Source: a virus
Lineage: Duplodnaviria; Caudoviricetes
Length of the DNA stretch: 64,000 bases
Reading direction: 5' to 3' (one strand)
IMG/VR virus record: IMGVR_UViG_3300037780_000034
Location: 32,001 to 96,000 of that record
Shown here in pieces: positions 47,756-64,000 of the stretch (the stretch's first letter is position 1; each line of letters begins with the position of its first letter). The translations under genes were made by a program, and so were the position numbers. Under the pieces are notes generated by a model, which saw only the letters and a list, made by a program, of their open reading frames with translations, had not been told where the DNA came from and did not search any database.

Positions 47756-48358
47756 ATGATCAATGTCCAAGGAAAACTGCCGAAAGAATTGGTAATCGCT
47801 TGTAGCGGCGGCCCTGACAGTATGGCAATCGTTGATTTCCTAAAACGTAAGCACAAAGTTATGCTACAATTTGTTCATCATATGACAGATACAAGTGATG
47901 AAGCATTTGACTTGCTTAAAAAATATGGAAAAGACCATAATATTGATGTTTTCGTAGACTATATTGATCCCGATGTTCCAAAAGGTGTTAGCCAAGAAGA
48001 ACATTGGCGTAATCAACGATATGATGTATTCTTTAAATATAAAAGTCATCCCGTAATTACTGGTCATCATCTTGATGATTGTGTGGAAACTTGGATTTGG
48101 AGTTCTATGCACGGTATGGGAAAAATTATTCCATATCGTAACAACAATGTTATTCGTCCGTTTCGCACAACTCGTAAAACTGATTTTGTAAACTGGTGTG
48201 ATCGTAACAATGTGCCTTATATGATTGATAAATCAAACAATGATCAAAAGTATATGAGGAATTATATTCGCCATACAGTTCTTCCTAACGTATTGCATAT
48301 TAATCCAGGAATTCATAAGACTATCAAAAAGAAAATTATCAATGAAGATATTTGTTAA
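47756..48358 (+). CDS. tilS: tRNA(Ile)-lysidine synthetase, catalytic domain only (start revised to ATG 47756)
   Basis: PP-loop ACSGGPDSM, R..RY, TGHHLDD..ET, IRP, D.SN....Y.RN.IRH. Confidence 0.85.
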   Translation: MINVQGKLPKELVIACSGGPDSMAIVDFLKRKHKVMLQFVHHMTDTSDEAFDLLKKYGKDHNIDVFVDYIDPDVPKGVSQEEHWRNQRYDVFFKYKSHPVITGHHLDDCVETWIWSSMHGMGKIIPYRNNNVIRPFRTTRKTDFVNWCDRNNVPYMIDKSNNDQKYMRNYIRHTVLPNVLHINPGIHKTIKKKIINEDIC

Positions 48359-48376
48359 ATACTCCTAAACAGGAGA

Positions 48377-48964
48377 TTGACAATGACACATTATGTTTTT
48401 ATTCACGGAGCAAATTCCAGTGGAAATAGTTTTAATTATACATTATCACAATTAGAATTAAACAAAAAAGATTATACCCTTGTAAAATATAAAAGTTCTG
48501 ATGGATTTTATTTTAATTTAGAGCAAATGGCTGATAAAATAAAAGATAAAAAGAATATACTTGTAGTAGGGCATAGCTTGGGCGGATTATATGCATTGCA
48601 TTTGACAAAATTAGTAAATGTAGTATCCGGAATAAGTATATCAACCCCGTTCAATGGAAGTTCACTTGCAGATTGGGCAAAGTTTATGATGCCAAATTAT
48701 CAATTATGGCACGATATTGGCACAAACAGTCATCCAGTTGTTATGGGAAAAGAAATAAATCTTGAAATTCCGTGGACACAAATAGTTTCTACAAAAGGAA
48801 GGGTTCCTTGGATTGTTCCAGACAACGATGGTGTAGTCACTATTAGAAGTCAAAAATCAAGAAAAGATATGAATTTTTTAGAATTGCCTTATAACCATTA
48901 TGAAATTATGTGTGTTCCACAAACAGTAGAAGTTATAAAAAGTCATAAAAATATGATGGATTGA
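48377..48964 (+). CDS. alpha/beta hydrolase
   Basis: FIHG, GHSLGG nucleophile elbow, NDGVV, NH. Confidence 0.85.
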   Translation: MTMTHYVFIHGANSSGNSFNYTLSQLELNKKDYTLVKYKSSDGFYFNLEQMADKIKDKKNILVVGHSLGGLYALHLTKLVNVVSGISISTPFNGSSLADWAKFMMPNYQLWHDIGTNSHPVVMGKEINLEIPWTQIVSTKGRVPWIVPDNDGVVTIRSQKSRKDMNFLELPYNHYEIMCVPQTVEVIKSHKNMMD

Positions 48965-48989
48965 CAAGATATAGTCAATGTGATATACC
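48961..48989 (+). promoter_or_regulatory. sigma70-like promoter with TTGAC-N8-GTCAA inverted repeat
   Basis: TTGACA-17-TATACC. Confidence 0.6.
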
Positions 48990-49012
48990 TTGATAAAACA
49001 AGGAGTATCACA

Positions 49013-49468
49013 ATGAAAAAGGGCGAATCACTTTCAACTGCAATTCATATTGCAACTAATGCACATCACGGGCAGTTTGATAAAGGCGGAAAGCCTTATA
49101 TTCTTCATTGTTTCCGTGTAATGAACTATCTTGACACCGATGATGAAGAATTGCAATGTATTGCACTTTTGCACGATGTTGCAGAAGATACAAAAACAAC
49201 TTTTCAAGATATGCTTGATAGTGGTATGTCTAAACGTATTGTTGATGCAGTAAAATTGTTAACAAAGATGCCCGGTCAAACATACGAAGAATATAAAACC
49301 GGAGTTCTTTCAAATATTGATGCTATGCTTGTAAAAAAAGCAGATTTGACTGATAATTCCGATATACGGCGACTAAAAGGAATTACAGAGCGTGATATTG
49401 AAAGAACTGCAAAATATCATCGGTTCTATCTTGAGATTGAATCCAAAATGAGAGAGAAAAATGTATAA
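49013..49468 (+). CDS. HD-domain (p)ppGpp-hydrolase-like protein (Mesh1/SAH) (start revised to ATG 49013)
   Basis: AH.GQ.DKGG.PYI.H, ALLHDVAED, VK.AD..DN; AGGAG RBS. Confidence 0.8.
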   Translation: MKKGESLSTAIHIATNAHHGQFDKGGKPYILHCFRVMNYLDTDDEELQCIALLHDVAEDTKTTFQDMLDSGMSKRIVDAVKLLTKMPGQTYEEYKTGVLSNIDAMLVKKADLTDNSDIRRLKGITERDIERTAKYHRFYLEIESKMREKNV

Positions 49469-50633
49469 AAATATTAAAAAGTTTGATCCCATTTATAAAC
49501 GTGATTCCAGTGGGTCAACACGAATGTGGTCTATGCAAATCGGTTATACCGATACATCTGCATCACATCGTGTTGTATCCGGTGTATTAAATGGTAAGAT
49601 GGTAACAAGTGAATGGAAAGCGTGTAATCCAAAAAATATCGGAAAATCAAACGAGACAACTGCTTTGCAACAAGCAGAATCAGAAGTATCTTCATTGTAT
49701 ACAAAAAAGTTAGAGACCGGATATTTCAAAAATGTCAAAGAAATAGATGAGTTTGCAAAAACAAAACCTATGCTGGCATCACAACACGAAAATCATACTT
49801 ATGATTTTAAAAATAATATGTATTATTCTCAGCCAAAGATTGATGGTATCAGGTGCATTGCACGAAAAGATGGTCTATGGACAAGAACAGGTAAAGAAAT
49901 TGTTTCTATCCCTCACATTGGTAAAGAACTTAAAAATTTCTTTGAAAAATATCCGGATGCAATAATTGACGGAGAATTATACAACCACGATCTTAAAGAC
50001 GATTTTAATAAAATCACTTCTCTTGTTCGTAAAACAAAACCAAAACAATATGATTATGTAGAAACACAAAAACTTGTTCAATATCATATTTATGATATGG
50101 TCAATATGCCAGAAAAAGAAAAAACATTTTATGGAAAAAATCCATTTTTTAGTGATAGAATTTCGTGGCTAAAAGATGAATTGCTAAATTCATTTTCTGT
50201 AAACGATACCTTTATTAAATTTGTTCCTACACTTGCAGTGTATGATATGGAACAACTTGATAAATTATATGGTGAATATCTTGAATATGGATACGAAGGC
50301 CAAATGATACGCATAAACGCAGTTTATCAAGAAGATAAACGTTCTAAATATCTTATAAAACGAAAAGAGTTTTTAAGTGAAGAATTTCCAGTTTTAGAAA
50401 TGACAGAAGGACAAGGAAATTGGGCTGGACATATAAAGCAGCTTGTTCTACAATTGCCAGATGAAAGGAAGTTTGGAGCAGGAATTCGCGGGACACAAGA
50501 AGTTCTTAGCAATTTATACAAAAATGGAAAAAAACCGGATTGGGCAACAGTAAGATACTTTACGCCTACACCAGATGGTATACCTCGTTTCCCAGTAGTG
50601 GTTGATTGGGGATATGGAACTCGTAACGATTGA
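49461..50633 (+). CDS. lig: ATP-dependent DNA ligase
   Basis: QPKIDG, DGELY, YHIYD, EGQMIR, LIKRK, PRFP. Confidence 0.9.
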   Translation: MYKNIKKFDPIYKRDSSGSTRMWSMQIGYTDTSASHRVVSGVLNGKMVTSEWKACNPKNIGKSNETTALQQAESEVSSLYTKKLETGYFKNVKEIDEFAKTKPMLASQHENHTYDFKNNMYYSQPKIDGIRCIARKDGLWTRTGKEIVSIPHIGKELKNFFEKYPDAIIDGELYNHDLKDDFNKITSLVRKTKPKQYDYVETQKLVQYHIYDMVNMPEKEKTFYGKNPFFSDRISWLKDELLNSFSVNDTFIKFVPTLAVYDMEQLDKLYGEYLEYGYEGQMIRINAVYQEDKRSKYLIKRKEFLSEEFPVLEMTEGQGNWAGHIKQLVLQLPDERKFGAGIRGTQEVLSNLYKNGKKPDWATVRYFTPTPDGIPRFPVVVDWGYGTRND

Positions 50634-50656
50634 TAACATAATATAGGAATATAGTT

Positions 50657-51040
50657 ATGAAATTATTAAACTTTTTTAAAAATATTACTAAATCTCTTTT
50701 TTCAAAATATGCAGTTTACACATATAATACAAGAGGAACAACATTTTATGTTGGTTGTTATAAATATAGAGGAAAATGGTATGGAATTGACAGAAAAATT
50801 CCCGATATTGAAGAAGAACTATTAACAAATAACAATATAAATTCTGTTACGAATAAAGTATATTCAGATAATTTTTTATGGAGAATTGACTTTAATATTA
50901 CTCCAGCCACCGGAGATAGAATACATGAATATTGCACAGTTAACAACAAAGAAGATGCCAAGTTTGCTATAAAAAAGCATAAAGATATACAAAACTTTTT
51001 AAAGAGTAAAAATGTTAAGCCAACAGTAGAATACTGTTGA
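50657..51040 (+). CDS. hypothetical protein
   Basis: 127 aa. Confidence 0.7.
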   Translation: MKLLNFFKNITKSLFSKYAVYTYNTRGTTFYVGCYKYRGKWYGIDRKIPDIEEELLTNNNINSVTNKVYSDNFLWRIDFNITPATGDRIHEYCTVNNKEDAKFAIKKHKDIQNFLKSKNVKPTVEYC

Positions 51041-51065
51041 CACTGTATACTGATTATGTCATAGT
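51037..51065 (+). promoter_or_regulatory. sigma70-like promoter
   Basis: TTGACA-17-CATAGT. Confidence 0.6.
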
Positions 51066-51091
51066 GGATTCACCACAGTAAGGAACATTCT

Positions 51092-51682
51092 ATGAACTAT
51101 TGTTTTCCACAAATTCGCACAATTGATGATGTCCTTCCTTATATAAAAGGACGTGAAGAATTTGTTGTTGCTGAACGTGAGTTTGGCACAGTGATAAACT
51201 ATATGGTATCAATGCCAGACACGTTTGATATGAAGGGACCAGATGATTTAGGCGGGGCTATTCGTCGTGAATGTCGTGGAATTAAGTTCTATCCTGACGG
51301 AACTATTGCTTCTCGTGTTTTTCATAAATTTTTCAATATTGGAGAACGTGAAGAAACACAAATTCATAAAATTGATTTAACGTTACAACACACACTTATG
51401 GACAAACGTGATGGAAGTATGATACACCCGATGATGGTAAATGGGTATATTCGCTGGATGACAAAAATGGGTTTATCAGATGTAGCATTGCAAGCAGAAA
51501 AATATATCAATACCACAAACAACTATAATCCTTTTGCTGCTTGGTGTATTGAAAGCGGATTAACTCCAATTTTTGAATATACTGGTCCAAATAACCGAAT
51601 TGTTGTTTCTTATGAAAAAGAAGAATTAGTTCTACTTGCAGTTCGTGACAACATTACTGGAGAATATCTTGATGTTACTTGA
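51092..51682 (+). CDS. rnlA: RNA ligase 1 (T4 Rnl1-like), N-terminal part
   Basis: RECRGI, HKFFN, motif I KRDGS, IFEY, NRIV, LLAVRD. Confidence 0.85.
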   Translation: MNYCFPQIRTIDDVLPYIKGREEFVVAEREFGTVINYMVSMPDTFDMKGPDDLGGAIRRECRGIKFYPDGTIASRVFHKFFNIGEREETQIHKIDLTLQHTLMDKRDGSMIHPMMVNGYIRWMTKMGLSDVALQAEKYINTTNNYNPFAAWCIESGLTPIFEYTGPNNRIVVSYEKEELVLLAVRDNITGEYLDVT

Positions 51683-52232
51683 TAAAATAAAAGAATATAA
51701 TATTCCTGTAGTAGAAACTCATCAAGCGTTTGATGACATTCATTCTCTTATAGAACATACAAAACATCTTAAAAATGCAGAAGGATTTATCATTTCGTTT
51801 CCTAATGGTCATAAACTTAAGATCAAAGCTGACGAATATGTAAGAATTCATAAAACAAAAGATATGATCCAGTTTGATCGTAACATAGTTGACTTGATCA
51901 TCAATGAAAATATTGATGATGTTATTCCTATGTTGCCAGAAACTGATGTAAATCGTATTCGTGATTTTGAAAAACGATTCTGGAAAGCATTTCTTGATAC
52001 TGAGAAAAAGTTGTATGGATTATATCGTGAAGCCGGAACATCGTATGATTATGATAAAAAACGTATTGCGACTGAATACATTCCGAAATATATAAAAGAC
52101 AAAACATATAGTTCATTTATATTCAGTCAAATAGATGGAAAAGATTTGCGCAATATGTTGCTAAAACATATTGAAAAAAACATAACAACTAACGTTAAAT
52201 GGGACCAATGCGCAAAATGGTTAGGAATGTAA
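51672..52232 (+). CDS. rnlA: RNA ligase 1, C-terminal part (different frame)
   Basis: Motif IV EGFII and motif V KLKIKADEY, then a helical C-domain; ATG 51672 overlaps the upstream stop. Confidence 0.8.
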   Translation: MLLDKIKEYNIPVVETHQAFDDIHSLIEHTKHLKNAEGFIISFPNGHKLKIKADEYVRIHKTKDMIQFDRNIVDLIINENIDDVIPMLPETDVNRIRDFEKRFWKAFLDTEKKLYGLYREAGTSYDYDKKRIATEYIPKYIKDKTYSSFIFSQIDGKDLRNMLLKHIEKNITTNVKWDQCAKWLGM

Positions 52233-52514
52233 ATGTTTAAATATATTAAGTCTTTATTTGTTAAACAACCAAAAAAAGAAAAAAAATTTATTGTTACCTT
52301 TAAAGGACAAATTTTTTTTACAGGTAATTCTAAAGAAAAATTGGAAAAACAAATATATAATGCATTCTTAATTCATACCAATTCACATACCATACCTGTA
52401 TTGAATAATAGCTATAAATTATCAGAAAGATACAAATTATTTAGAAGTTACTTCAAAATAACAGAAGTATGCACAACTTGTGGACATAAATCAGGATATT
52501 GTGGACAATGCTAA
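52233..52514 (+). CDS. hypothetical protein with C-terminal Cys motif
   Basis: CTTCG..GYCGQC. Confidence 0.65.
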   Translation: MFKYIKSLFVKQPKKEKKFIVTFKGQIFFTGNSKEKLEKQIYNAFLIHTNSHTIPVLNNSYKLSERYKLFRSYFKITEVCTTCGHKSGYCGQC

Positions 52515-52876
52515 GAACTGTAAAATATGAAGATAAATTTGTTCAAGGAAAACTTGTTCAAAATGAGAATGTGTTTTGCTCTTGTTCCGATGGATACATC
52601 AGTATAGATAGGTGTGACTGCGAATCTGGTTGGGCAAAACGTGCAACAGTTGACCACAAGGGAACATTGTATACTGGCGAATTGGTTCCAATTGTTGTCA
52701 AAAACCCAAGTTTCACTGTTTCCGTAGTAAAAGAAAATGAGGATGGATCATGTGAAATAGAAATAGAAATGGATGACTTTTCCAGCAACTTTTTCCACAA
52801 AGAGTCAACTCGTTTTAATATGAGTCTAGAAGATTATATTGTTTCACTGCTTGCGAAACAATCTAAATTTATATAA
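52499..52876 (+). CDS. hypothetical protein
   Basis: Cys cluster; C-terminal ribbon-helix-helix-like segment. Confidence 0.65.
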   Translation: MWTMLRTVKYEDKFVQGKLVQNENVFCSCSDGYISIDRCDCESGWAKRATVDHKGTLYTGELVPIVVKNPSFTVSVVKENEDGSCEIEIEMDDFSSNFFHKESTRFNMSLEDYIVSLLAKQSKFI

Positions 52877-52910
52877 TAACAAAATATGTCGCTATAAAAA
52901 GGAGAATAAT

Positions 52911-53108
52911 GTGACACATCTGCAATATAAAATTACAATTAATTCTGGGTTAGATCATAACGAAGAACCACAAATCTCGTTTAGTATGGACGAAGATACT
53001 CATACTTTTTTAGAAACAATGTCAACTGACAATAATATTACTGTAGGAGAGCTTGTAGCTAGTTTTCTTATGGGTGCAAAATTTACTACGGCTTCTTATG
53101 TAAACTAA
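52911..53108 (+). CDS. small hypothetical protein (GTG 52911)
   Basis: AGGAG RBS; RHH-like pattern. Confidence 0.6.
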   Translation: MTHLQYKITINSGLDHNEEPQISFSMDEDTHTFLETMSTDNNITVGELVASFLMGAKFTTASYVN

Positions 53109-53117
53109 AAATTGTTC

Positions 53118-53146
53118 TTGACAAACGAATCAATATGATCTAATAT
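53118..53146 (+). promoter_or_regulatory. sigma70-like promoter
   Basis: TTGACA-17-TAATAT. Confidence 0.75.
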
Positions 53147-53208
53147 AACAACTTGAATGATAACAGCAAACCAAACAAAACATCATTCTGACAAATAGGA
53201 GAAATAAT

Positions 53209-54636
53209 ATGTCAGCACTATTCAAAGCAGTAAACCGTGAAACTACAGTAACCGAAAATGGTATGGCAACACTTGAATCAAGTCTGGATTCAGTTGTTGA
53301 CCTTTTCTTTAAAATCGGTGCAAGCCGTGGAAAATTTGATGCACTAAAAAATACATTAAGTGCTGCATTTGCAACAGACCCTGAAATGACTGTTCGCGTT
53401 CTTCTTTGGTCTCGTGATGTTCGCGGCGGTGCCGGTGAACGAAAGCTATTCCGTGATGCTATACTATTTGGTTTCCAAATTGGTGCACTCACGAAAGAAC
53501 AAGGTGATCGCATTGTATCAAAAGTCCCAGAACTTGGGCGTTTTGATGATCTTTATGCATTCATCGGAACACCAAGTGAAAATGCAGCAATTGAACTTTT
53601 TGCTGGTGCACTTCGTTCTGGAAACGGTCTAGCTGCTAAGTGGAGTGATCGTAAAGGTATGAATGCAGTAAAAATGCGCAAAGCAATGGGTCTAACTCCA
53701 AAACAATATCGTAAGCTTGTTGTAAACAACACAAACGTTGTGGAACAACTTATGTGTGCAAAAAGCTGGAATTCTATTGAATTTGACAAGCTACCTAGTG
53801 TTGCTGCATCACGGTATCAAAAAGCTTTTTGGAAAAATGCAAACGAATCATATTCCAAATATGTAGAAAGCCTTAAAAAAGGTGAAGCAAAAATCAATGC
53901 TGGTGCGGTGTATCCATATGATATTGTCAAAAGCCTAAATTATGGCGATAAAGATGTTGCAAACCAACAGTGGAATTCACTTCCTGACTATATGGAAGGA
54001 ACAGAAAATCGCGGTATTCTACCTGTAGTTGATGTAAGTGCAAGTATGACTGTTCCAGCAGGAGGATATGGTTCAGGATCAAGTGTAACTTGTCTTGATG
54101 TTGCTGTGTCACTTGGACTTTACCTAAGTGAACGCAATCGTGGTATATTCAAAGATCAGTTTATTACTTTTAGTAATAATCCACAAATGCATAAACTTTC
54201 CGGAAATCTTTATCAACGGTATACACAACTTCGTCGTGCAGATTGGCAAATGTCAACTGACCTTGAAAAAGTATTCAAAGTTGTTCTTGATGCTGCAATC
54301 AATGGAAAGGTTGCTGAAAGTGATATGCCTGAAACAATTCTTATTCTTTCTGATATGCAATTTAATAGTGCAGTATCATCGCGTTATGGACGTAGCAACC
54401 CAACATCTTTTGAAATGATCAGTGATATATACAAAAATGCTGGTTATAAAATGCCAAACGTAGTTTACTGGAACATTAATTCAAAAAGTGGTGTTCCTGT
54501 TGAATTTGACCAAAGTGGAACGGCTCTTGTAAGCGGATTCTCGCCTTCAATTATGAAGTCTATAATTCGTGCAGAAAATGTCACTCCTGTTGATGTTATG
54601 AAGCAAACAATTATGGACAGTCGCTACGATTGGTAA
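53209..54636 (+). CDS. TROVE/Ro-like protein with vWA domain (DUF2828-type)
   Basis: TENG, RDVRGGAGER..F, GRFDDL, LAAKW, MIDAS VDVSASM, ILSDMQF, WNI. Confidence 0.85.
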   Translation: MSALFKAVNRETTVTENGMATLESSLDSVVDLFFKIGASRGKFDALKNTLSAAFATDPEMTVRVLLWSRDVRGGAGERKLFRDAILFGFQIGALTKEQGDRIVSKVPELGRFDDLYAFIGTPSENAAIELFAGALRSGNGLAAKWSDRKGMNAVKMRKAMGLTPKQYRKLVVNNTNVVEQLMCAKSWNSIEFDKLPSVAASRYQKAFWKNANESYSKYVESLKKGEAKINAGAVYPYDIVKSLNYGDKDVANQQWNSLPDYMEGTENRGILPVVDVSASMTVPAGGYGSGSSVTCLDVAVSLGLYLSERNRGIFKDQFITFSNNPQMHKLSGNLYQRYTQLRRADWQMSTDLEKVFKVVLDAAINGKVAESDMPETILILSDMQFNSAVSSRYGRSNPTSFEMISDIYKNAGYKMPNVVYWNINSKSGVPVEFDQSGTALVSGFSPSIMKSIIRAENVTPVDVMKQTIMDSRYDW

Positions 54637-54703: not shown

Positions 54704-55276
54704 ATGATAATAATGAGTGAAACACCTAAAATAAATACAGAATATAACTCAGAAAATTTAGAATCTTTTTTAAATAATTTTTATAAAGACCCAAGTGAAA
54801 AATATGTAGCATTATTTGAAAGTATGCATAACCTATGCAAGGAAAATGGATGGGGAGAACCCTTCTCTTATGCCAGAAGTAGAGAAATCCATATGGCTTG
54901 TATCCTTGGAAACACTCTTGCTGACACCTATAGCGGTGCAGATGCCTATGATGAAGATGGTCCTTGTGAATACAAATCTACCATTTCAAACAAGATAAAT
55001 GCAACATATAACGGAATATCAGTTCAACCTTCTTGGGATGAACAAATAAAATATTTAAAAGAAGAAAAAATAGGAAAATATAAAAATCACTACTATGCCA
55101 GATATAATGGCAGTTCTATAGAAGAAATATGGAAATTAACTGCTGATGACGTAATTAGTATTGTAGAAGAACCATTGAAAAAACAATATCATAATAAAAG
55201 TAATAAAAAAGACCCAAGATTGGGCATAAATATTAGTGAAGGAAAAATAAAACAATATGGCAAAAGAATCTTATGA
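54704..55276 (+). CDS. PvuII-family type II restriction endonuclease-like protein
   Basis: GADAYDEDGPCEYKS matches PvuII GNDAVDNAGQEYELKS; KIGKY..YYARYNGSSIEEIWKL matches IIAKY..FAIYRGIAIEAIYRL (compared from memory). Confidence 0.65.
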   Translation: MIIMSETPKINTEYNSENLESFLNNFYKDPSEKYVALFESMHNLCKENGWGEPFSYARSREIHMACILGNTLADTYSGADAYDEDGPCEYKSTISNKINATYNGISVQPSWDEQIKYLKEEKIGKYKNHYYARYNGSSIEEIWKLTADDVISIVEEPLKKQYHNKSNKKDPRLGINISEGKIKQYGKRIL

Positions 55277-56216
55277 AAGTAAACTTATAAACGGAGATTT
55301 TTTAAAAGAAATATATCAAGTAGAAGATAATATAGTAGACCTATTACTTACAGATTTGCCATATAACATAAGTGAAAAAGGAGCAAACCCAGAATGGTTT
55401 GTAACTGATGAAAAAACTGGCGAAAAAATAAACAAAAACGGAATTCATAATCAACAGTTTGATGATAAATTTGAAGAAAAATGGGATTCTTTGTCCGAAG
55501 ACGATTTCATAAAAAATCTACAAATATGGGCAAATACGTGGTATCCAAAACTAAGAAATGGTGGTTCTTTTGCTATATTCATTAGTGATCGTTATATTTC
55601 GCATTTATGGTCAGCTATGGAAAAGGCTGGATTTGAACCAAAACGAATATGGACTTGGAAAAAGCCAGCAGCAGTTCCTTTTAATAGAAAAGTGAATCCA
55701 GTAAGCGGTTGTGAATATATTTTGTGGGGAATAAAACCAAACGGTAAAAGAACATTTAATTCAGATTGTCCACAAGAAAATATAGTAGCAAGATATAGTA
55801 TGGCTGATAAATTAAGTTCTATACTATATAAAAAATTAAAAGATGATACAGAAATGAATTTAGATAAATGTTTCTTAGAAGCATTAGTTGATGCCAAAAA
55901 AGTTTATGAAAATTTAAAAAGAACAAACGATATAGAACATTGTGTAATTCCAAACACAATAACATATAGTGGCGGTCTAGGAAAAGATAAAATCCATCCT
56001 ACTCAAAAGCCAGAAGAAGTATTAGAATATTTTATAGAATTATTGACCAACAAAAACGATATAGTATTAGATACTTTTGCTGGAAGCGGAAGCACAGGTA
56101 TGGCGTGTAAAAAATTAGATAGAAAATATATTTTAATAGAAAAAGACAATAATATGTTTAAAAAAATGAGCGCCAGATTTGAAGAAAATCCACTATTAAA
56201 GAATTTATTTGAATAA
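55257..56216 (+). CDS. beta-class amino (N4C/N6A) DNA methyltransferase
   Basis: Motif IV TDLPY, HPTQKP, motif I LDTFAGSGSTG at the C-terminus. Confidence 0.9.
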   Translation: MAKESYESKLINGDFLKEIYQVEDNIVDLLLTDLPYNISEKGANPEWFVTDEKTGEKINKNGIHNQQFDDKFEEKWDSLSEDDFIKNLQIWANTWYPKLRNGGSFAIFISDRYISHLWSAMEKAGFEPKRIWTWKKPAAVPFNRKVNPVSGCEYILWGIKPNGKRTFNSDCPQENIVARYSMADKLSSILYKKLKDDTEMNLDKCFLEALVDAKKVYENLKRTNDIEHCVIPNTITYSGGLGKDKIHPTQKPEEVLEYFIELLTNKNDIVLDTFAGSGSTGMACKKLDRKYILIEKDNNMFKKMSARFEENPLLKNLFE

Positions 56217-56231: not shown

Positions 56232-56239
56232 AATAAATA
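56232..56239 (+). promoter_or_regulatory. late promoter variant AATAAATA
   Basis: Directly upstream of the 2H phosphoesterase gene. Confidence 0.5.
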
Positions 56240-56266
56240 TCTTTATAGTAAAATATGGAGATATTT

Positions 56267-56767
56267 ATGAAAACATTTAAAGAATATTTAAAAGAACAAG
56301 AATTACCAGAAGAAATAAAATATGTTGCAATAATTTGCGATCAATCTACCCAAACAAAACTCATAAATTATTGTATTAAAAATAACTTTAATTTAGAAAA
56401 ATCATATGATGACGAACAGCAATCACCAGAAGATTTTGAATTTCACGTTACTATATTTTTTACAAATTCTCTGCATAAGATTGAAAATAAAGAAGAACAG
56501 TTAAATGATGTAATTTCAGCTAATCCAATTAAATTAGAAGTATTTGGTCAAAATAAAGATGTTCCTGTATTAAAAGTTGAAGGCGATGGAATATCAAAGT
56601 TGAGAAAATACTTTGAAAAAACATATAATATGACTGATGAGTGGCCAGACTTTAAACCACATATATCATTGAGTTATGATAGAAAACCATATAACGTTGA
56701 CGAAATAGAACTACCAGATTTCCCCATATACTTTGATAAGTTAGTAATAAGAAGCGGGGAAGAATAA
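56267..56767 (+). CDS. 2H phosphoesterase, T4 57B/Acb1-like (start revised to ATG 56267)
   Basis: Two HxT/S motifs (FHVTI, PHISLSY), N-terminal YVA; GGAG RBS. Confidence 0.8.
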   Translation: MKTFKEYLKEQELPEEIKYVAIICDQSTQTKLINYCIKNNFNLEKSYDDEQQSPEDFEFHVTIFFTNSLHKIENKEEQLNDVISANPIKLEVFGQNKDVPVLKVEGDGISKLRKYFEKTYNMTDEWPDFKPHISLSYDRKPYNVDEIELPDFPIYFDKLVIRSGEE

Positions 56768-57301
56768 ATGTCAAAATTAGGAAAAACAGAATATCCAAGA
56801 AGTAAAAATGAATTTTATCCAACACCAATTTCTGCATTAGAACCATTAGTTTTACATTTAGAACAGAATATTACATATTGTGAACCTTGTGCAGGAGCAA
56901 ACGATTTAGTAAAAAATCTTGCAATTTTAAGACCTGATATTAAATGTAGTATATCATTTGACATTGATCCAAGGGATAATAATATTATAAAAAAATCTGC
57001 AACAGACATAGAAAAAAGTGAAATAGATAATATAGATTATTTTATAACAAATCCTCCATTTAAGTGGGAAATGTTTGATCCAATAACAACTCATTTAATT
57101 TCATTAAAACCTACTTGGTTATTAATTCCTTCAGATTTTATGCATAATAAAAGAATGGGACCATATATGAAAAAATGCTCCAAGGTGGTGTCTGTTGGAA
57201 GAGTAAAATGGTTTTCTGATAGTAAAGCCACAAGCACTGATAATTTTTGTTGGTATCTTTTTCAAAATGAATTGACAGAAACACGTTTCTACGGAAGATA
57301 A
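56768..57301 (+). CDS. small gamma-class N6-adenine DNA methyltransferase
   Basis: EFYPTP, EPCAG, ITNPPF, W.LIP, GRVKW. Confidence 0.85.
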   Translation: MSKLGKTEYPRSKNEFYPTPISALEPLVLHLEQNITYCEPCAGANDLVKNLAILRPDIKCSISFDIDPRDNNIIKKSATDIEKSEIDNIDYFITNPPFKWEMFDPITTHLISLKPTWLLIPSDFMHNKRMGPYMKKCSKVVSVGRVKWFSDSKATSTDNFCWYLFQNELTETRFYGR

Positions 57302-57333: not shown

Positions 57334-57370
57334 ATTGAAAAGTATACTTTCAACTACCAAGGAATTCATA

Positions 57371-58442: not shown

Positions 58443-58650
58443 CACAATATCAAAGCTTATAACTTTGTCTATAAGTAGCTGCACGTGCTTAACCAAAAGC
58501 CCGTTACCATCATACCACAGCATAGATTGTAAATATCGGATAACATTAGAAGTAATATCAGAAGTTGAAAACTTAATTGCAGTGAACGAAACACTAACAA
58601 AACAACTGTTGTTGGTAACAAATGAGAATAAACAAAATGTGCAACCATAA
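58435..58650 (+). CDS. small hypothetical protein
   Basis: Signal-like N-terminus with Cys; start uncertain. Confidence 0.45.
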   Translation: MNSTISKLITLSISSCTCLTKSPLPSYHSIDCKYRITLEVISEVENLIAVNETLTKQLLLVTNENKQNVQP

Positions 58651-58852
58651 TTTATACTGGGAATATAGCGATAATAGTCATATATCGGTCATATACAATA
58701 ATAAAAATTTTGCAAATTTTGAAATTTTAAATGATCAAGATTTAACTTATTTTAAAAAATGGTTTAATAACTTTTCTTCCGATATAAAAGAAAATCGAAT
58801 TAATTCTATAGATATATTTAAAAATTTACCAGATGGCAAGGTTATTCCTTAA
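58622..58852 (+). CDS. hypothetical protein
   Basis: 76 aa. Confidence 0.55.
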   Translation: MRINKMCNHNLYWEYSDNSHISVIYNNKNFANFEILNDQDLTYFKKWFNNFSSDIKENRINSIDIFKNLPDGKVIP

Positions 58853-59289
58853 TGATCAAACGAATTAAAAAATATATAGAACAAGTCAAAGAAAAAAGAT
58901 TTCTAAAAAAACACAATGTAAAAAGTTGGGAGCAATATCATAGGGTATATGATCCTGATATTAATAAAAATGAAATGATAGTTGAAAACTATTATCACGG
59001 ATATGACACTGTGATTATAATGTCAAAATATGAAAATGTAGGAGACATATTTGGAATATATCCTAAAGTTGCCAATATAGAAAAATGGTGCAAAGAAAAT
59101 GCTAATTACAAATATAGAATTGATCTTAGTCCAATATTTTATGCAAATGGAAAGCTTTCTTTCATTGACAATTGGGGAGTTGAAGAAATAATATTGGCAT
59201 TTAAAAATAACGAAGATTTTTTATTATTCATGTTAACATATGACGGAATTGAACTAAAAGGAAGAACCGATGTGGTCAAAATTAATTGA
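58852..59289 (+). CDS. hypothetical protein
   Basis: 145 aa. Confidence 0.7.
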   Translation: MIKRIKKYIEQVKEKRFLKKHNVKSWEQYHRVYDPDINKNEMIVENYYHGYDTVIIMSKYENVGDIFGIYPKVANIEKWCKENANYKYRIDLSPIFYANGKLSFIDNWGVEEIILAFKNNEDFLLFMLTYDGIELKGRTDVVKIN

Positions 59290-59878
59290 AACTCCAATTG
59301 GCTATTATGCTGAAAACATTATGCGCAGGAACAATTGTGGATACCATAACTGGGATCATATCATAGCAATGTTCAATTATCTTGAAGAAAACAATTATCC
59401 ATACGATATAGATTTGGATGCTGCAATTCTTTATCACGATAGTGTATATGATAATCAACCAGATAAAGAAATTCGTTCTAGCGAATTGTTTTATGATTAC
59501 TGCAAAATGTATCCAGATAGATTTGCCATAACTCATCAAAACACGGTTCATCTACTTATTATGGAAACCATTGACCACAGTATCAAAAAAGGTTCTGATG
59601 AAGTTAGTCGCGCAATTATACGAGCAGATTTGCACGGATTGGCAGATGGTGAAACTACTTTTATGAATTATCATAAAATTATGAATGAAAGTATACAATT
59701 ATACAATATTGATAGAAAAACTTTTGCAACCAATAATATAGAATTTATGATAAGTTTACAAGGGCGTATATCTTATAATATTATTAATGATCATAAAAAC
59801 TACGAACATTTTTGGCAAAATGTATTAAAAGGTATTGATGATACCATTACTATGTCACAAATAATATTAAGAGAATAA
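59270..59878 (+). CDS. HD-superfamily phosphohydrolase
   Basis: YHNWDHI, LYHDSVYD, E..S.ELF, ADL..L. Confidence 0.8.
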   Translation: MWSKLIETPIGYYAENIMRRNNCGYHNWDHIIAMFNYLEENNYPYDIDLDAAILYHDSVYDNQPDKEIRSSELFYDYCKMYPDRFAITHQNTVHLLIMETIDHSIKKGSDEVSRAIIRADLHGLADGETTFMNYHKIMNESIQLYNIDRKTFATNNIEFMISLQGRISYNIINDHKNYEHFWQNVLKGIDDTITMSQIILRE

Positions 59879-59893
59879 TAGAAAGGAAACATT

Positions 59894-60058
59894 ATGAAAA
59901 CACTCATTGAACTCGGACGTGAAGTAGGCTATACCCCAGCACAAGTAAGAAACATCGTAAGAAAAGAAAAATTGTTTTTGGAAATATTAGAATGCGAAAC
60001 CGTAGAAGATGTAAAAATTCTACTTATGCATTGGGTTGATCAAGGAAAAATAAAATGA
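59894..60058 (+). CDS. 54-aa hypothetical protein
   Basis: Hand-translated MKTLIELGREVGYTPAQVR...; AAGGA RBS; not in track. Confidence 0.6.
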   Translation: MKTLIELGREVGYTPAQVRNIVRKEKLFLEILECETVEDVKILLMHWVDQGKIK

Positions 60059-60225
60059 AATTAAGTGAACTTATACAGAATCTGCAAAAATTGCAAGAAC
60101 GCGATGGTGATGTAGAATTTGAGTTTGATTGGGATATAGGGACTGCTCCCATAGATCAAAAAGATATTCGTTTGACATTTGATTCATATTCAGAATCATA
60201 CTTTTTGTCTTTTCATCCAATTTGA
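60055..60225 (+). CDS. 56-aa hypothetical protein
   Basis: Hand-translated MKLSELIQNLQKLQERDGDVEF...; ATGA overlap. Confidence 0.6.
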   Translation: MKLSELIQNLQKLQERDGDVEFEFDWDIGTAPIDQKDIRLTFDSYSESYFLSFHPI

Positions 60226-60237
60226 TAGGATATCAAT

Positions 60238-61038
60238 ATGAATAAAAATTCTGATGAATTCGGTAATCGTATGAAGTTTTTTGAACGAGCATACACCGAT
60301 GTTCGTATCCCTATTAATGTGCCTCTTTGTGTTCGTATTGATGGAAAAGGTTTTAGTAAATTTACCAAAGGATTTACAAAACCTTTTGACAGCCATTTAA
60401 CACAGGCAATGATTGATACAACTAAGCATTTGGTAAAAGAAACAAATGCAAATATTGGGTATACACAATCAGATGAAATTACTCTAATATGGTTTCAACG
60501 AAGTGAAAAGCAAAATGAACATATTTTTGGAGGAAAAGTATCAAAGATAAATTCTATACTTGCAAGTATGGCATCAGCAGCTTTTAACCATTATATTGAA
60601 AAATATTCTCCAATTTTGTATGCGGGAAAAGGGTTGGCTTACTTTGATTGTCGTGCTTGGAGTGTTCCAAATGATGTTGAAGCAAGTAACGTTTTACTAT
60701 GGCGTATTCAAGATGCAAAGAAAAATAGCATATCAAGCTTATATCGTTGGACTCTTGGATATAGCACTATGCACGGGTTAAGTGGAACCCAAATGATTGA
60801 AAAATTAAAATCAAGTGGAACAGATTGGGAAAAACTATCTGCAACATATCGTTATGGTGTTTGTGTTCGTCGTAAACCTCGTATGGTTGAACTGGATAGT
60901 GAAACATTGGCAAAGATTCCAGTTGACAAACAACCTGAAAATGCTATGGTAATGAGAAATGAATACGTAGAAGAACGTGCAGATAAATTTGCTGAACGTA
61001 GTTTGAAATCTCGTGTAACCTATATAAAAGGATACTAA
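60238..61038 (+). CDS. thg1: tRNA-His guanylyltransferase / Thg1-like 3'-5' polymerase
   Basis: VRIDGKGFSKFT, KPFD, YTQSDEIT, FGGKVSK, FDCR, WRIQDA.KNSI. Confidence 0.9.
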   Translation: MNKNSDEFGNRMKFFERAYTDVRIPINVPLCVRIDGKGFSKFTKGFTKPFDSHLTQAMIDTTKHLVKETNANIGYTQSDEITLIWFQRSEKQNEHIFGGKVSKINSILASMASAAFNHYIEKYSPILYAGKGLAYFDCRAWSVPNDVEASNVLLWRIQDAKKNSISSLYRWTLGYSTMHGLSGTQMIEKLKSSGTDWEKLSATYRYGVCVRRKPRMVELDSETLAKIPVDKQPENAMVMRNEYVEERADKFAERSLKSRVTYIKGY

Positions 61039-61040
61039 CA

Positions 61041-61433
61041 ATGACTATTACTGAAAAACTAGATAGAATTCGCCGCCGTGTTCTTAACGGTTCTGCAATG
61101 GTAAACCAATATCGCTCCAGTTGGGGTGATAAATATTCTTTCAAAGAACTTGATATGGCTCTATCAAATAAAAAAGGATTTGGTTGGGAAGAAATTGAAT
61201 TGATTACCCAAAATGATTTGAAAACTGTTGATCGTCAAACTCTTTATAATTATGGGTTTGGAAATTGGGATGATAAACTAATTCTTATTCCTCTTTGGTT
61301 GGTAAATTTTATGGATCAAACAGAAGAAGTAGTTTCTATTATGGACAAAAAATCCACACTTGCCGATTGCGATAAAGACGTTCGTGGTGGATGTCTTGCA
61401 TATGGATTTTATTTGGAGAATGAAAATGGTTGA
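61041..61433 (+). CDS. hypothetical protein
   Basis: 130 aa ending RGGCLAYGFYLENENG. Confidence 0.75.
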   Translation: MTITEKLDRIRRRVLNGSAMVNQYRSSWGDKYSFKELDMALSNKKGFGWEEIELITQNDLKTVDRQTLYNYGFGNWDDKLILIPLWLVNFMDQTEEVVSIMDKKSTLADCDKDVRGGCLAYGFYLENENG

Positions 61434-61545
61434 ACCTGTAGAAATATTAAACACAACATATTGAGCGAATGATTAACCTTGGACAAGAAGTTTACGAACA
61501 CGTAAGCAATATGTACGGAGCACCATTGGGAGGACATTTAGCAGA

Positions 61546-61746
61546 ATGACCGAGCCTTTAGAAGTACACAAAGACTTTAACGAAGCTGTTGTTGAGTTTT
61601 GGCATAGCGACGAAAACCGTCCTTTTGCTAAAATACACGCAGACGAATTAAGAGTCTATGAAGATAGAATAGAAGTTTATAGCAGGGACTATTCTTATCC
61701 TATTCTCGTAGTCCGAGAGTATGGCTGGTGGAGAGAAGCAGAATGA
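61546..61746 (+). CDS. hypothetical protein inside the duplicated segment
   Basis: 66 aa; GGAGG RBS. Confidence 0.7.
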   Translation: MTEPLEVHKDFNEAVVEFWHSDENRPFAKIHADELRVYEDRIEVYSRDYSYPILVVREYGWWREAE

Positions 61747-61970
61747 AAGTTAATATTAAACCACAACAAATTATTCCTGCTAGTTACAGTATTCGTTTCG
61801 ATGAAGACCGTGATTATGCTGGATACATTGTTCAAACACAACCGTATGAAGATCGGTTGAGACCCGACATTGAATCTTGGTTAAACACAAACGCTATAGG
61901 TTAGAGTGTAAATTTTGATCGTGGTGGATGTCTTGCATATGGATTTTATTTGGAGAATGAAAATGGTTGA
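61743..61970 (+). pseudogene. chimeric ORF interrupted by an in-frame TAG
   Basis: MKVNIKPQ...NAIG, TAG at 61902-61904, then SVNFDRGGCLAYGFYLENENG and stop. Confidence 0.5.
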
Positions 61971-62448
61971 ACCTGTAGAAATAGTAAACACAAAGTATCT
62001 TTCCAAAGACGGTAAGATGTATGACACCTATGAAAAAGCAGAAACTGCCGACAAAGAATTTGAGCAAAAAAACAGCTTTGATCCTGCAAAGGAAGTTGCC
62101 AGATTGGAAAAAATGACCGAAATTAATTTTTCACGAATTCAGAAACAAATTGACAATGGAAAAGATGCGTTTCCTTCATTCTGGATGACTGAACAAAAGT
62201 ATGGGCAAGACTATTACATGTGTAGCAATTTTTCAGATATGGAAGAAATGGGATGGTCTGCATTTCTTATGTGGTATGACTATTATATTTGTCACGACGA
62301 TGAAACCGTTTCTGTTGTAGAAGCAATTAAATTAACAGAAAACAAAAAAGCAGCACTTGCATTTGTTCTAGATCGTGTTTCACAGGGTTACGAGTATGAA
62401 AGACTGGAAAAAATCGCAATGATAAGATTTGGTGATAAAAATGGATAA
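61963..62448 (+). CDS. hypothetical protein (start revised to ATG 61963)
   Basis: GGAG RBS; a truncated copy of its start sits at 61426. Confidence 0.75.
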   Translation: MVEPVEIVNTKYLSKDGKMYDTYEKAETADKEFEQKNSFDPAKEVARLEKMTEINFSRIQKQIDNGKDAFPSFWMTEQKYGQDYYMCSNFSDMEEMGWSAFLMWYDYYICHDDETVSVVEAIKLTENKKAALAFVLDRVSQGYEYERLEKIAMIRFGDKNG

Positions 62449-62605
62449 AGATCAAATTATTGAATGGCTTTATGATAATCTTACATTAGAATCTAAAACA
62501 ATATATGATTCTTATGGTAATACAACGGGCTGTGAAATTAAGATTGAGATTTACCATAACAAAGAAAACCTAACATTAACACAAACTGAAATATATTTTA
62601 ATTAA
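62441..62605 (+). CDS. 54-aa hypothetical protein
   Basis: Hand-translated MDKDQIIEWLYDNL...; not in track. Confidence 0.55.
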   Translation: MDKDQIIEWLYDNLTLESKTIYDSYGNTTGCEIKIEIYHNKENLTLTQTEIYFN

Positions 62606-62636
62606 AGAATAATACATCAACTAAAGGAGCTTTAGT

Positions 62637-63557
62637 ATGAAAAAAATTTATCTTTGCGGACCAACCCTATACTCTGATATTCATATCGGGAACGCTAGAA
62701 GTATGGTTCTGTTTGATGTAATTTCAGAATATTATCGTAGAACAGAAGGCGTCATTTATATTAGAAATATTACTGATGTAGATGATAAAATCATATCTTT
62801 AGCAGGAGAACAACACCCCGCAGAATGGGTTAATGAAAATACATTAAAATCATTCGTTGATGCAAAAAAATTTCTTAGTCTAAAAGACCCAGATTACGAA
62901 CCTCGTGCATCAAACTTTATTGATGATATGATTTTGTATATACAAAATTTAGAAAAAAAGGGTTATACGTTTTCTCTTGAAGACGGTATATATCTTGATA
63001 TTACTAAAGTAGATTATCCTACAAAAATTTCAAATCGTCCTGTTGGATCAAAACAAGATTCATTTGCTATTTGGAAATTTACAGATGTTGGATATACTTG
63101 GGATAGTCCGTGGGGCAAAGGTCGCCCTGGCTGGCATACCGAATGTGCAGTAATGATTGATAAATTATTAGGAAAAGTAGATTTACATGGTGGAGGAAAT
63201 GATTTACTATTCCCACATCACGAAAATGAAAATATTCAATGCCGGTGCACTAATGGTCACGATATTTCTGTTAATTGGCTACACGTAGGATTTGTAAAAG
63301 TCAATAATGAAAAAATGTCTAAAAGTGCAGGAAATGTTATAACAGTAAAACAATTGGAAAAAGATTGGAGTAGTGAAGCAATTCGTGTATTTTTGTTGAT
63401 GGCTTCTTATTCTAAGCCTATTGATTTTACTATGGCAAGAATGAAGGAAGCCGAAACTATATCAATTAGAAGACCAGAAGCTGCTTGGTTGACAACAGAA
63501 GAATGGTCTGATAAAATGCTAAAAAAGTTAGAAAACAACTTCGATACCAGACTGTAG
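62637..63557 (+). CDS. cysS: cysteinyl-tRNA synthetase-like protein, catalytic domain only
   Basis: CGPT, HIGN, NITDVDDKII, SPWGKGRPGWHTEC, HGGG.DL.FPHHENE, KMSKS; ends at ...NNFDTRL. Confidence 0.85.
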   Translation: MKKIYLCGPTLYSDIHIGNARSMVLFDVISEYYRRTEGVIYIRNITDVDDKIISLAGEQHPAEWVNENTLKSFVDAKKFLSLKDPDYEPRASNFIDDMILYIQNLEKKGYTFSLEDGIYLDITKVDYPTKISNRPVGSKQDSFAIWKFTDVGYTWDSPWGKGRPGWHTECAVMIDKLLGKVDLHGGGNDLLFPHHENENIQCRCTNGHDISVNWLHVGFVKVNNEKMSKSAGNVITVKQLEKDWSSEAIRVFLLMASYSKPIDFTMARMKEAETISIRRPEAAWLTTEEWSDKMLKKLENNFDTRL

Positions 63558-63606
63558 AAAAGTGACAGAACAAAATAAACACAAAATCAACTAAAGGAGT
63601 TTTAGG

Positions 63607-64000
63607 ATGGAAATTATTAACGAAGTAATTACATATTTCTCAGGAACTTGGGGAATGGTAGAATTAGCAGGAACTATTTTTAGTTTAATCTGCGTATATC
63701 TTGCAACAAAACATAATCAATGGACTTGGTTCTTTGGTGCATTGGGAGTCATTCTATTTGGTGCACTGTTTTATGAGTATAAACTGTATAGTGATGCAGT
63801 ATTGCAAATTTTATTCTTTTTACCCTTACAGGTTTGGGGATTTATGAAATGGCGCGATCTTGCAAATGAATCTGCAAATGATACCGTAACATTGTCACTA
63901 CAACCAAAAACAATAGCCATTATTATAGGATCAATACTTACATTAACTTTGATTAATGGATATGGTATGGCTACATACACAGATGCAAGTTTTCCATATG
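63607..64000 (+). CDS. pnuC: nicotinamide riboside transporter PnuC (partial, runs off window edge)
   Basis: Hand-translated VELAGTIFSLICVYLATKHNQWTWFFG..LYSDAVLQ....VWGF.KW...TDASFPY. Confidence 0.85.
   Translation, partial: MEIINEVITYFSGTWGMVELAGTIFSLICVYLATKHNQWTWFFGALGVILFGALFYEYKLYSDAVLQILFFLPLQVWGFMKWRDLANESANDTVTLSLQPKTIAIIIGSILTLTLINGYGMATYTDASFPY

Follow-up and report, generated by a model that had tools for sequence, protein, structure and literature searches.

Positions 47,756 to 64,000 of the 64,000-nt stretch of phage DNA analysed here (the window) carry a dense run of accessory genes, and the question raised by this block is whether it forms a translation-rescue and counter-defence island, as a preliminary description had proposed, or belongs to a toolkit that extends over the genome. 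The source is a T4-like group 2.2 jumbo phage of the PA5oct/Atu_ph07 kind with a 318-kb genome (~85% complete) from a pond sample; its host is probably alphaproteobacterial. No close relatives emerged when viral and metagenome contigs were scanned with single proteins. The explanation that we consider likely is that the block is a toolkit part of a variable arm, in which a split Rnl1-type RNA ligase works as a two-chain enzyme.

Gene content and setting of the block

The gene families listed earlier were confirmed by profiles and, for the Ro60 fold, by structure (Table 1). The hydrolase call for the HD protein at 59270 holds by its motifs but without any profile match, and the "left-arm NTase" (1127-2299) matched no named family; a CCA enzyme lies at genome 121103-122542.

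Table 1. Features of the block, in window coordinates
Feature	Position	Strand	Basis
Minimal TilS, lysidine synthetase N-domain only	47756..48358	+	TIGR02432 114.5 bits (cut-off 93.6), PF01171
Alpha/beta hydrolase (missed in the preliminary description)	48377..48964	+	PF12697
Small alarmone-hydrolase-like HD protein (Mesh1/SpoT-N type)	49013..49468	+	PF13328 (HD_4), RelA/SpoT N-terminal match
ATP-dependent DNA ligase (missed in the preliminary description)	49461..50633	+	PF01068, PF14743
Sigma70-like promoter before Rnl1-N	51037..51065	+	TTGACA-17-CATAGT with TG; consensus match only
Rnl1 N-half, 196 aa	51092..51682	+	PF09511; motifs I, Ia, III, IIIa
Rnl1 junction scar	51660..51682	+	GGAG within N-half codons, ATG 51672, stop 51680-51682
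Rnl1 C-half, 186 aa	51672..52232	+	motifs IV, V, helical C-domain
Ro60/TROVE-fold protein (DUF2828 + DUF7788 vWA)	53209..54636	+	AF2 pLDDT 80 (with alignment), phrog_850
PvuII-fold endonuclease-like protein, viral family	54704..55276	+	phrog_35715
N4/N6 (beta-class) DNA methyltransferase	55257..56216	+	PF01555, PADLOC MTase_II; overlaps nuclease gene
Acb1-family 2H phosphoesterase	56255..56767	+	PF23474 45 bits (cut-off 27)
Small orphan amino-methyltransferase (NPPF)	56768..57301	+	phrog_799
HD-motif hydrolase	59270..59878	+	H..HD..D motifs in sequence
Thg1-like 3'-5' polymerase	60238..61038	+	PF04446, phrog_4717
80-nt direct repeat (96%) around 537-nt insert	61382..61998	+	sequence
CysRS, 306 aa, without helical and anticodon-binding domains	62637..63557	+	PF01406
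PnuC transporter, 205 aa in genome	63607..64000 (window end)	+	PF04973

Several of these genes could be characterized further by comparison with L096, the one relative in which the block is fully syntenic (39-96% identity). TilS (dN/dS 0.10) is better explained by codon supply, because ATA accounts for 3615 of the 7264 Ile codons. A phage tRNA-CAT at genome 139709 carries C4-G69/C5-G68, which we take to be the determinants of tRNA-Ile2(CAU), the TilS substrate, so that the genome holds both the N-domain and its substrate. The alarmone-hydrolase-like protein is 96% identical in L096 (dN/dS 0.03). For the Ro-like protein, all 12 Foldseek matches at E<=0.001 were Ro60/TROVE proteins, the best being 9kop/9l5y (phage phiLo Ro60) and Rsr/Ro60 (E 9e-9 to 3e-5), and its predicted structure has the HEAT ring and vWA fold of that family. 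No Y-like RNA was matched by Rfam, which divergent Y-like RNAs escape, in the window and the next 60 kb (124 kb).

The restriction-modification pair was upheld as a putative PvuII-fold PD-(D/E)xK nuclease beside a beta-class methyltransferase. The nuclease (dN/dS 0.08) had an Atlas feature score of 0.94 and a TM of 0.65-0.68 to PvuII clusters, while a PDB sequence search returned chance matches only; it also lies beside methyltransferases in P-TIM68 and alone in P-SSM2. CAGCTG does not occur (0 vs 19 expected), with similar depletion in 11 of 45 six-base palindromes, and the recognition site of the pair is not readable from palindrome avoidance. The Acb1-family protein matched Acb1 7t26 weakly (E 0.004) and starts with MKTFKEYL, which resembles a T4 capsid-targeting sequence. 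PnuC opens an NAD-salvage set that continues beyond the window with NadR, NadM-Nudix and Nampt.

We then asked whether these genes constitute a unit. As claimed, all lie on the + strand; this orientation, however, runs from near window position 7744 to about genome 197 kb, a co-oriented arm of ~150 kb that extends far past the block on both sides. The bounded island was thus not borne out, and neither strand, composition nor promoters set the block apart from its flanks. Consensus sigma70 sites numbered 126, against 106.8±11.4 in shuffles, and a strict scan gave 9 on the + strand against 4.0±1.8, with only three TTGACA sites near gene starts (51037, 53118 and 63489), the first in an intergenic position 27 nt ahead of the Rnl1-N start. 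The repeated promoters are no special feature, since their density (12 per 16 kb) falls within the genome range of 4-18. Furthermore, the block is divided into several units by a terminator (54655) and by a late-type AATAAATA site that precedes Acb1 at 56232.

Every step of the proposed tRNA-repair line is present in the genome, but the line is spread over ~150 kb. The block contains 5 of its 11 genes (p=0.15 vs random placement), and the other 6 (CCA enzyme, RlaP, kinase, HAD, Pth2 and Rnl2) lie elsewhere. A T4-type PNKP HAD domain was not found in the ~85% complete genome, which does encode a HAD_SAK_2 protein and a stand-alone kinase. Also outside the block are NadR, NadM, Nampt, Macro, YAcAr, IF-1, a third methyltransferase and all tRNAs (genome 137-150 kb). 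The proposed link between the families and defence pressures stands as far as RNA repair, translation support and counter-nucleotide roles are concerned, but only Acb1 matches a tested anti-defence family, and each anti-defence role in the block is putative.

Conceivably, the block could still be a selected, co-regulated island with an excess of new anti-defence proteins among its small ORFs. Its tagged genes are dense (12 of 25, p=0.0004; p 0.025-0.07 with fuller tagging), and because the remainder of the arm is less rich in them, a degree of functional clustering may exist; this enrichment is modest and depends on the tagging. Synteny with L096 and the pairing of the HD protein (59270) with Thg1 in 5 of 39 other loci point the same way, as does the co-localization of anti-defence genes reported for roughly one third of phage genomes (PMC11724313). 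We nevertheless regard such an island as unlikely. It would have neither boundaries nor a promoter excess, its repair steps are unclustered, genes for a DNA ligase and a hydrolase occupy its middle, and the small ORFs tested matched no named family. Moreover, these genes mostly stand separately in distant phages. Beyond L096 the block is only partly syntenic in L099 and L281; no second block gene was present within 10 kb in 14 of the 16 Ro-anchored loci or in 27 of the 39 Thg1-anchored ones, and Rnl1-anchored loci mostly shared only the DNA ligase (14/53) or the alarmone hydrolase (8/53), in a comparison that covers homologues of this phage's own proteins and to which other families with the same job are invisible. 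Co-occurrence in relatives, which the preliminary description had itself put forward as a test, fails beyond one close relative.

Together these findings identify the block as a gene-dense part of an ordinary jumbo-phage RNA-repair and anti-defence toolkit and not as a self-contained island. What is unusual about it is the split Rnl1 and the short CysRS. It would belong to the variable early/middle arm, where accessory genes may be gained and lost singly via short repeats located in leaders and at the ends of genes; the 537-nt insert and the CysRS gene, for example, are both bracketed by repeats and missing from L096. Several block genes would then be members of the known RNA-repair, translation-supply and counter-nucleotide toolkit, the rest of which lies elsewhere in the genome.

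An Rnl1-type RNA ligase split over two genes

The claim of a split Rnl1 proved correct. The full T4 Rnl1-type set (motif I Lys, Ia, III Glu, IV Glu-Gly, V Lys-x-Lys and the helical C-domain) is divided over two ORFs that overlap by 11 nt, each with its own start signals. The N-half aligns with residues 53-192 of T4 Rnl1 (2c5u), and the C-half matches residues 213-367 (E 9e-7) and is 50% identical to the C-part of the full-length protein P0123. The break falls before motifs IV-V and leaves catalytic residues in both halves. Neither an endonuclease gene (by sequence) nor an internal promoter (by promoter scan) is present at the junction in this phage. A contig from a second sample, X2, spans the junction with 0 differences, which excludes an assembly error. 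Between this phage and L096, both endonuclease-free, dN/dS was 0.16 for the N-half and 0.11 for the C-half, similar to the neighbouring intact genes (0.03-0.25); both halves are under purifying selection.

The split is widespread. Among the best 120 near-length Rnl1 homologues, 116 were N-halves of 190-210 aa with a common end point; motif I was kept in 119 of the 120 and motif IV in none of the short ones. Most of the more distant relatives are whole, the same genome encodes an Rnl2-type ligase that could substitute for Rnl1, and the short CysRS discussed below lacks a normally needed domain, all of which would fit decaying pseudogenes or assembly errors. This explanation is largely refuted and highly improbable: the CysRS gene, like the Rnl1 junction, is identical in the second sample, more than 100 Rnl1 relatives share the position of the split, both Rnl1 halves show the low dN/dS and the catalytic residues described above, and the short CysRS retains 50-78% identity and the same end over eight clusters.

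The origin of the break was suggested by 22 split loci. In nine distinct loci among them, the break is occupied by an antisense ORF with HNH, GIY-YIG or NUMOD3 traits, in gaps of 635-1145 nt that occur in all three frames; other gaps measured 293-380 nt in 2 loci and -14 to +34 nt in 4 loci. The endonuclease gene is free-standing, without intron or intein, and is found in relatives only, having presumably been lost here. A group I/II intron was rejected, as Rfam gave no match in nine gap-bearing loci and the short-gap loci have no room for one. Most gap-bearing loci have a sigma70 site just ahead of the C-half, and the L090 gap contains a promoter and SD; the window and L096, which share one junction layout, have no such site. 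In a quick tree of the joined halves, which may differ in history, the sister of the window and L096 was the endonuclease-bearing L099 (SH-aLRT 99).

These observations are consistent with a scenario in which an antisense gene for a free-standing homing endonuclease was inserted in an ancestor between motifs IIIa and IV, providing the C-half with a promoter and RBS. Later, in this lineage, a deletion would have removed both the endonuclease gene and the C-half promoter and, in the same event, set the C-half ATG just behind the GGAG within the N-half codons, so that both halves may now be translated from one mRNA by translational coupling. Alternatively, in the endonuclease-free state a programmed +1 frameshift or hop might yield one full-length ligase, the split being hidden in the protein. 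The C-half is in the +1 frame at all four short-gap junctions, the micro-repeat CTTGAT lies where the halves of this phage meet, the linker that a shift would create is plausible in length, and T4 gene 60 illustrates that such scars can recode. We give this alternative little credence, however, as the L096 junction lacks the micro-repeat while keeping the GGAG-9 nt-ATG spacing, and a prfB-like shift site was likewise unconserved there. In addition, the C-half start MLL(D/E/Q/K)KI is identical in endonuclease-bearing loci, where gaps of 800-1100 nt in all frames exclude a shift, and the L090 gap supplies its own signals.

The two-chain enzyme that we favour would build one active site from the motif I Lys of the N-half and the motif IV Glu-Gly and two motif V Lys residues of the C-half. 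A complex model of the halves scored 0.84, against 0.00 for the best control, on a scale whose mark was reached by 51 of 78 solved pairs and 2 of 108 mismatched pairs; this score may stem from likeness to the solved T4 Rnl1 and so indicates compatibility only. At least 82% of contacts agreed between runs, with a partner pLDDT of at least 81. The tails added at the break comprise only about 3 and 10 residues, which speaks against this reading; the short, conserved C-half start lies in the modelled interface.

The short cysteinyl-tRNA synthetase

The short CysRS keeps the Zn-site residues (CGPT, HTEC, HHENE), HIGN and KMSKS, and belongs to a monophyletic eight-member clade (SH-aLRT 100). It is absent from the corresponding place in syntenic L096 and is flanked by near-identical 33-nt RBS leaders (62616 and 63586). 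Its score of 284 bits against the canonical cysS equivalog is under the cut-off of 340; an identity as MshC was rejected (154 bits vs 284; PDB E 8e-33 vs 4e-69). Amber recoding was rejected too: TAG-ended ORFs gave no meaningful read-through, which would add only 6 aa to CysRS.

It is a doubtful proposal that this enzyme is anticodon-blind and charges tRNAs which the host enzyme refuses, acting with the two-chain Rnl1 and CCA enzymes as the recharging step. Its substrates may then be tRNA-Cys whose anticodon loop has been cut or has just been repaired, the phage tRNA-Cys (a 7/5 tRNA with G1-C72, GCA, U73 and a C2.A71 mismatch), or the phage CUA tRNA, which has A73. If true, this would be a previously undescribed recharging step in jumbo-phage tRNA repair. 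The clade offers a compact test of class I synthetase shrinkage and of the charging of damaged or odd tRNAs.

Comparison with known systems

Group 2.2 jumbo phages have been described with Rnl1, Rnl2, RlaP, CCA enzyme, Thg1, ROT/TROVE, 2H/HAD phosphoesterases, a kinase, PTH2, an HD-alarmone hydrolase and about 20 tRNAs (Iyer et al. 2021, PMC7824862). All these components were found in the present genome, and the island claim adds little to known jumbo-phage biology; term searches of that study returned no mention of TilS, PnuC, a short CysRS or a split Rnl1. In the literature searched, the coverage of which was incomplete, neither a split Rnl1 nor a short CysRS was seen to be reported from a phage. 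Like the anti-defence islands of T4 and Lambda (PMC11724313), the block has several conflict genes within 10 kb, including the Acb1-family gene; unlike them, it matches a validated anti-defence family only in Acb1 and is not conserved across distant phages, and the Nampt/NadM pair lies outside it, 11-15 kb from Acb1. The Ro-like protein shares the HEAT ring and vWA fold with its best structural match, Thermus phage phiLo Ro60 (PMC12135203), but at 14-17% identity and as a DUF2828 family member. CysRS* of Desulfobacterales, part of a selC* system (Mukai et al., PMC5389517), resembles the phage enzyme in lacking the anticodon-binding domain while keeping the catalytic motifs. In contrast, no selC*/selB* partner was seen here, with no 8/4 tRNA-Cys(UCA) with A1:U72 detected by ARAGORN or Rfam in the ~85% complete genome, and the viral clade occurs in varied gene contexts.

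The split Rnl1 would represent an end state of endonuclease invasion, in which the parasite and its promoter are gone and two chains are kept under selection. With a family of more than 100 sequence clusters, it would explain many short phage "RNA ligases" in annotation, and it could provide a ready split-enzyme reagent. Its closest parallels are the genes-in-pieces reductase nrdA-a/mobE/nrdA-b of Aeromonas phage Aeh1 (PMC3045599) and the MobA-split topoisomerase, for which three fates are known (bioRxiv 2022.08.31.505936): the endonuclease is lost while the split stays, other nuclease families take its place, or the halves undergo refusion. As in both, the active site is distributed over two ORFs, with a free-standing endonuclease and no intron or intein, and all three fates are also seen among the Rnl1 loci. 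Unlike in these cases, the enzyme is Rnl1, new for such splitting, so that a T4-type RNA ligase with a natural split would bring RNA repair within the range of genes-in-pieces; the nuclease gene and internal promoter are gone in this phage, where the halves overlap, and the Rnl1 tails are very short compared with the long, essential tails of Aeh1 NrdA.

Gene content and boundaries of the block

In the preliminary description, the genes from TilS to PnuC (window 47756-64000) had been proposed to form a translation-rescue and counter-defence island. Nearly all of the genes named for this block were borne out by profile searches. As identification of the Ro-like protein needed fold comparison, it was confirmed by predicted structure: its model (pLDDT 80 with a 22-row alignment) gave 12 significant matches in the PDB, all of them Ro60/TROVE proteins, with the phage protein phiLo Ro60 (PMC12135203) at the top. 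The block nuclease resembled PvuII in both features and predicted structure, while the protein encoded at 59270 is, judged by motifs alone, a putative HD hydrolase. The block further encodes a DNA ligase as well as an alpha/beta hydrolase, neither of which was on the original gene list. Just ahead of the block lie Hsp20 and ClpS genes, which are syntenic in a close relative (L096). The Acb1-family protein, alone in the genome, carries an MKTFKEYL-type N-terminus resembling T4 capsid-targeting sequences, and it may be packaged and injected.

No edges of a bounded island were found. The run of plus-strand genes extends from near window position 7744 to about 197 kb of the genome, GC is flat, and PnuC continues directly into NadR, NadM-Nudix and Nampt. 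The repeated sigma70 promoters also proved to be no special feature, with 126 consensus sites against 106.8±11.4 by chance. A strict scan gave a mild excess on the plus strand (9 versus 4.0±1.8), and only three TTGACA sites lie near gene starts in the block, a density similar to the rest of the genome. The Ro gene is followed by a terminator, and the Acb1-family gene is preceded by a late-type motif. Pth2, Rnl2, a stand-alone kinase, RlaP and the CCA enzyme are 12-90 kb from the block, as are a HAD_SAK_2 phosphatase, Macro, YAcAr and IF-1.

The proposed tRNA repair line is indeed known toolkit, but of 11 repair-line genes in the genome only 5 are inside the block (p=0.15). When conflict-type genes were pooled, 12 of 25 fell inside (local enrichment p=0.0004), under a tagging that favoured the block; adding twelve outside genes picked by eye gave p=0.025, and counting the R-M pair once gave 0.07. 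Since the enrichment weakens to this range with fuller tagging, the block is fairly described as a known toolkit within a mild hotspot, and not as a module.

Co-occurrence in relatives was likewise partial. The whole block order is kept in L096 (Rnl1-N 77%), minus CysRS and a 537-nt insert; beyond L096 and two further loci, L099 (TilS, hydrolase and DNA ligase retained) and L281 (HD, Thg1 and PnuC retained), the genes are mostly apart. In a test that detects only homologues of this phage's own proteins, 53 Rnl1 loci of at least 15 kb, L096 among them, contained the DNA ligase in 14 cases, the alarmone hydrolase in 8, HD in 5, Acb1 in 4 and others in at most 3. No other block gene was present at 14 of 16 Ro loci and 27 of 39 Thg1 loci. 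Thg1 and the 59270-family HD protein occur together in 5 of these 39 loci (L222-L227, L281), the sole recurring pair of block genes in that set. In the window, near-identical 33-nt RBS leaders stand on either side of CysRS, and an 80-nt repeat flanks the 537-nt insert; these are marks of single-gene capture.

The phage, its host and its tRNA enzymes

The virus record, from pond metagenomes, is 317,722 nt long (GC 31%, completeness ~85%) and holds 24 tRNAs, 22 of these within 137-150 kb; the window spans C1:32001-96000 of it. Several palindromes are strongly avoided genome-wide (observed/expected: GTAC 0.03, CATG 0.12, TCGA 0.22, CCWGG 0.33), and CAGCTG, GGATCC, AGATCT and ACCGGT do not occur at all. 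Short repeat-rich paralogues form tandem arrays; in the relative L090, a split Rnl1 is flanked by runs of short ORFs of similar sizes. A PLP aminotransferase of HemA-like appearance hints at a host among the Alphaproteobacteria. Such a host is likely, because the best Rnl1 matches are from Caulobacter and roseobacter phages and the phage tRNA-His carries A73 and no G-1, as in some alphaproteobacteria (PMC5389517). The nearest SSB relatives are PA5oct, Phosso, Atu_ph07 and PBECO4-type jumbo phages, which belong to group 2.2 of Iyer et al. and whose RNA-repair toolkit has already been published (PMC7824862).

ATA accounts for half of all Ile codons in the genome. One phage CAU tRNA carries the C4-G69/C5-G68 pairs that are TilS determinants, and TilS would have a plainer job tied to this codon use and tRNA. 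Given a phage tRNA-His that lacks G-1, Thg1 may act in 5′-end repair, as bacterial Thg1-like proteins are reported to do (PMC3061083).

Positions of features in the window and the genome (C1)
Feature	Position	Remarks
Hsp20 and ClpS genes	window 46390-47252	
Late-type AATAAATA site and MKTFKEYL-type N-terminus	window 56232-56290	site upstream of Acb1-family gene, N-terminus of its product
HRxDGPA-repeat paralogues	C1:1964-5646, 31748-32850, 126924-128222	tandem arrays
PLP aminotransferase	C1:110803-112020	resembles 5-aminolevulinate synthase
CCA-adding enzyme in two genes	C1:121103-122542 (L180:5103-6542)	TTGACA-17-TATAGT and GGAG in gap
CUA-anticodon tRNA	C1:138544-138617	G1-C72, A73
tRNA-Cys	C1:142276-142350	U73; C2.A71 mismatch in acceptor stem

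A short cysteinyl-tRNA synthetase

The short CysRS has the HIGN, KMSKS and Zn-site residues and ends where the helical domain begins. Seven further clusters (304-321 aa) stop at this point too and group with it as a single clade (SH-aLRT 100); these relatives lie on phage-like contigs with varied neighbours. The protein is a real variant of CysRS that lacks the anticodon domain, and it is closer to CysRS than to MshC. We give about an even chance to our best guess, charging of the phage tRNA-Cys via acceptor-end recognition alone. Use of a non-tRNA acceptor instead is less likely. The CysRS* of Desulfobacterales, for which charging of an opal suppressor tRNA has been proposed (PMC5389517), is a precedent for the short form. 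No such tRNA was seen in this genome at its ~85% completeness, and a suppressor role is highly improbable given that the genome has no amber read-through targets. CUA tRNAs are also found in Phosso (L004:13944) and at L021:12441, both near full-length CysRS and Rnl1. These two genes, the latter whole, are at most 10 kb apart in four large phages (L004, L021, L071, L079); in Phosso, a SerRS-annotated gene and Pth are also nearby.

The split RNA ligase

Rnl1-N (196 aa; window 51092-51682) aligns with T4 Rnl1 up to residue 192. Rnl1-C (51672-52232) starts at an ATG that has GGAG upstream and gives an 11-nt overlap with the N-half; it aligns with residues 213-367, including motifs IV and V. The junction was spanned with 0 differences by a second-sample contig of the same year and habitat, perhaps from one campaign. 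Between the window and L096, both endonuclease-free, dN/dS was 0.16 for the N-half and 0.11 for the C-half; therefore, both halves are still selected after endonuclease loss. A model of their complex scored 0.84 versus 0.00 for the best control (contact agreement at least 82%, pLDDT at least 81), in a calibration where the mark was reached by 51 of 78 solved pairs and 2 of 108 mismatched pairs. Since a solved one-chain homologue exists, this model shows fit and not binding, and the halves are predicted to be compatible as a complex.

Among the best 120 similar-length homologues, from a search that could not return full-length forms, 116 are 190-210 aa with the same end point and without motif IV; full-length Rnl1 predominates among more distant clusters. 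Across 95 loci, Rnl1 was whole in 73 and split in 22. Nine distinct split loci carry an antisense ORF in a gap of 635-1145 nt, with weak but consistent profile support for HNH, GIY-YIG and NUMOD3 endonucleases from at least two families; the gap ORF of L103 had no endonuclease profile match. Two other split loci have gaps of 293-380 nt and four have almost none. An Rfam search at the break in gap-bearing loci revealed no intron. At most of these loci the C-half has its own sigma70 site, which the promoter scan did not find in the window or L096. A quick tree pairs the window with L096 as sisters, adjoining the endonuclease-bearing L099 (SH-aLRT 99). Nested among the split forms is a whole Rnl1 (L115, at 10001) whose longer linker resembles the two tails joined; it is probably a refusion.

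The CCA enzyme shows the same kind of split: C-halves of 327-347 aa make up 20 of 120 homologues, and the break holds an antisense ORF of 331-333 aa in two relatives (L188, L189) and none in two others (L185, L190). The split, endonuclease-free state of Rnl1 is real and a putative two-chain, coupled end state. The nearest known parallels to Rnl1 are Aeh1 NrdA and the MobA-split topoisomerase; for the latter, endonuclease loss, replacement and refusion have been described.
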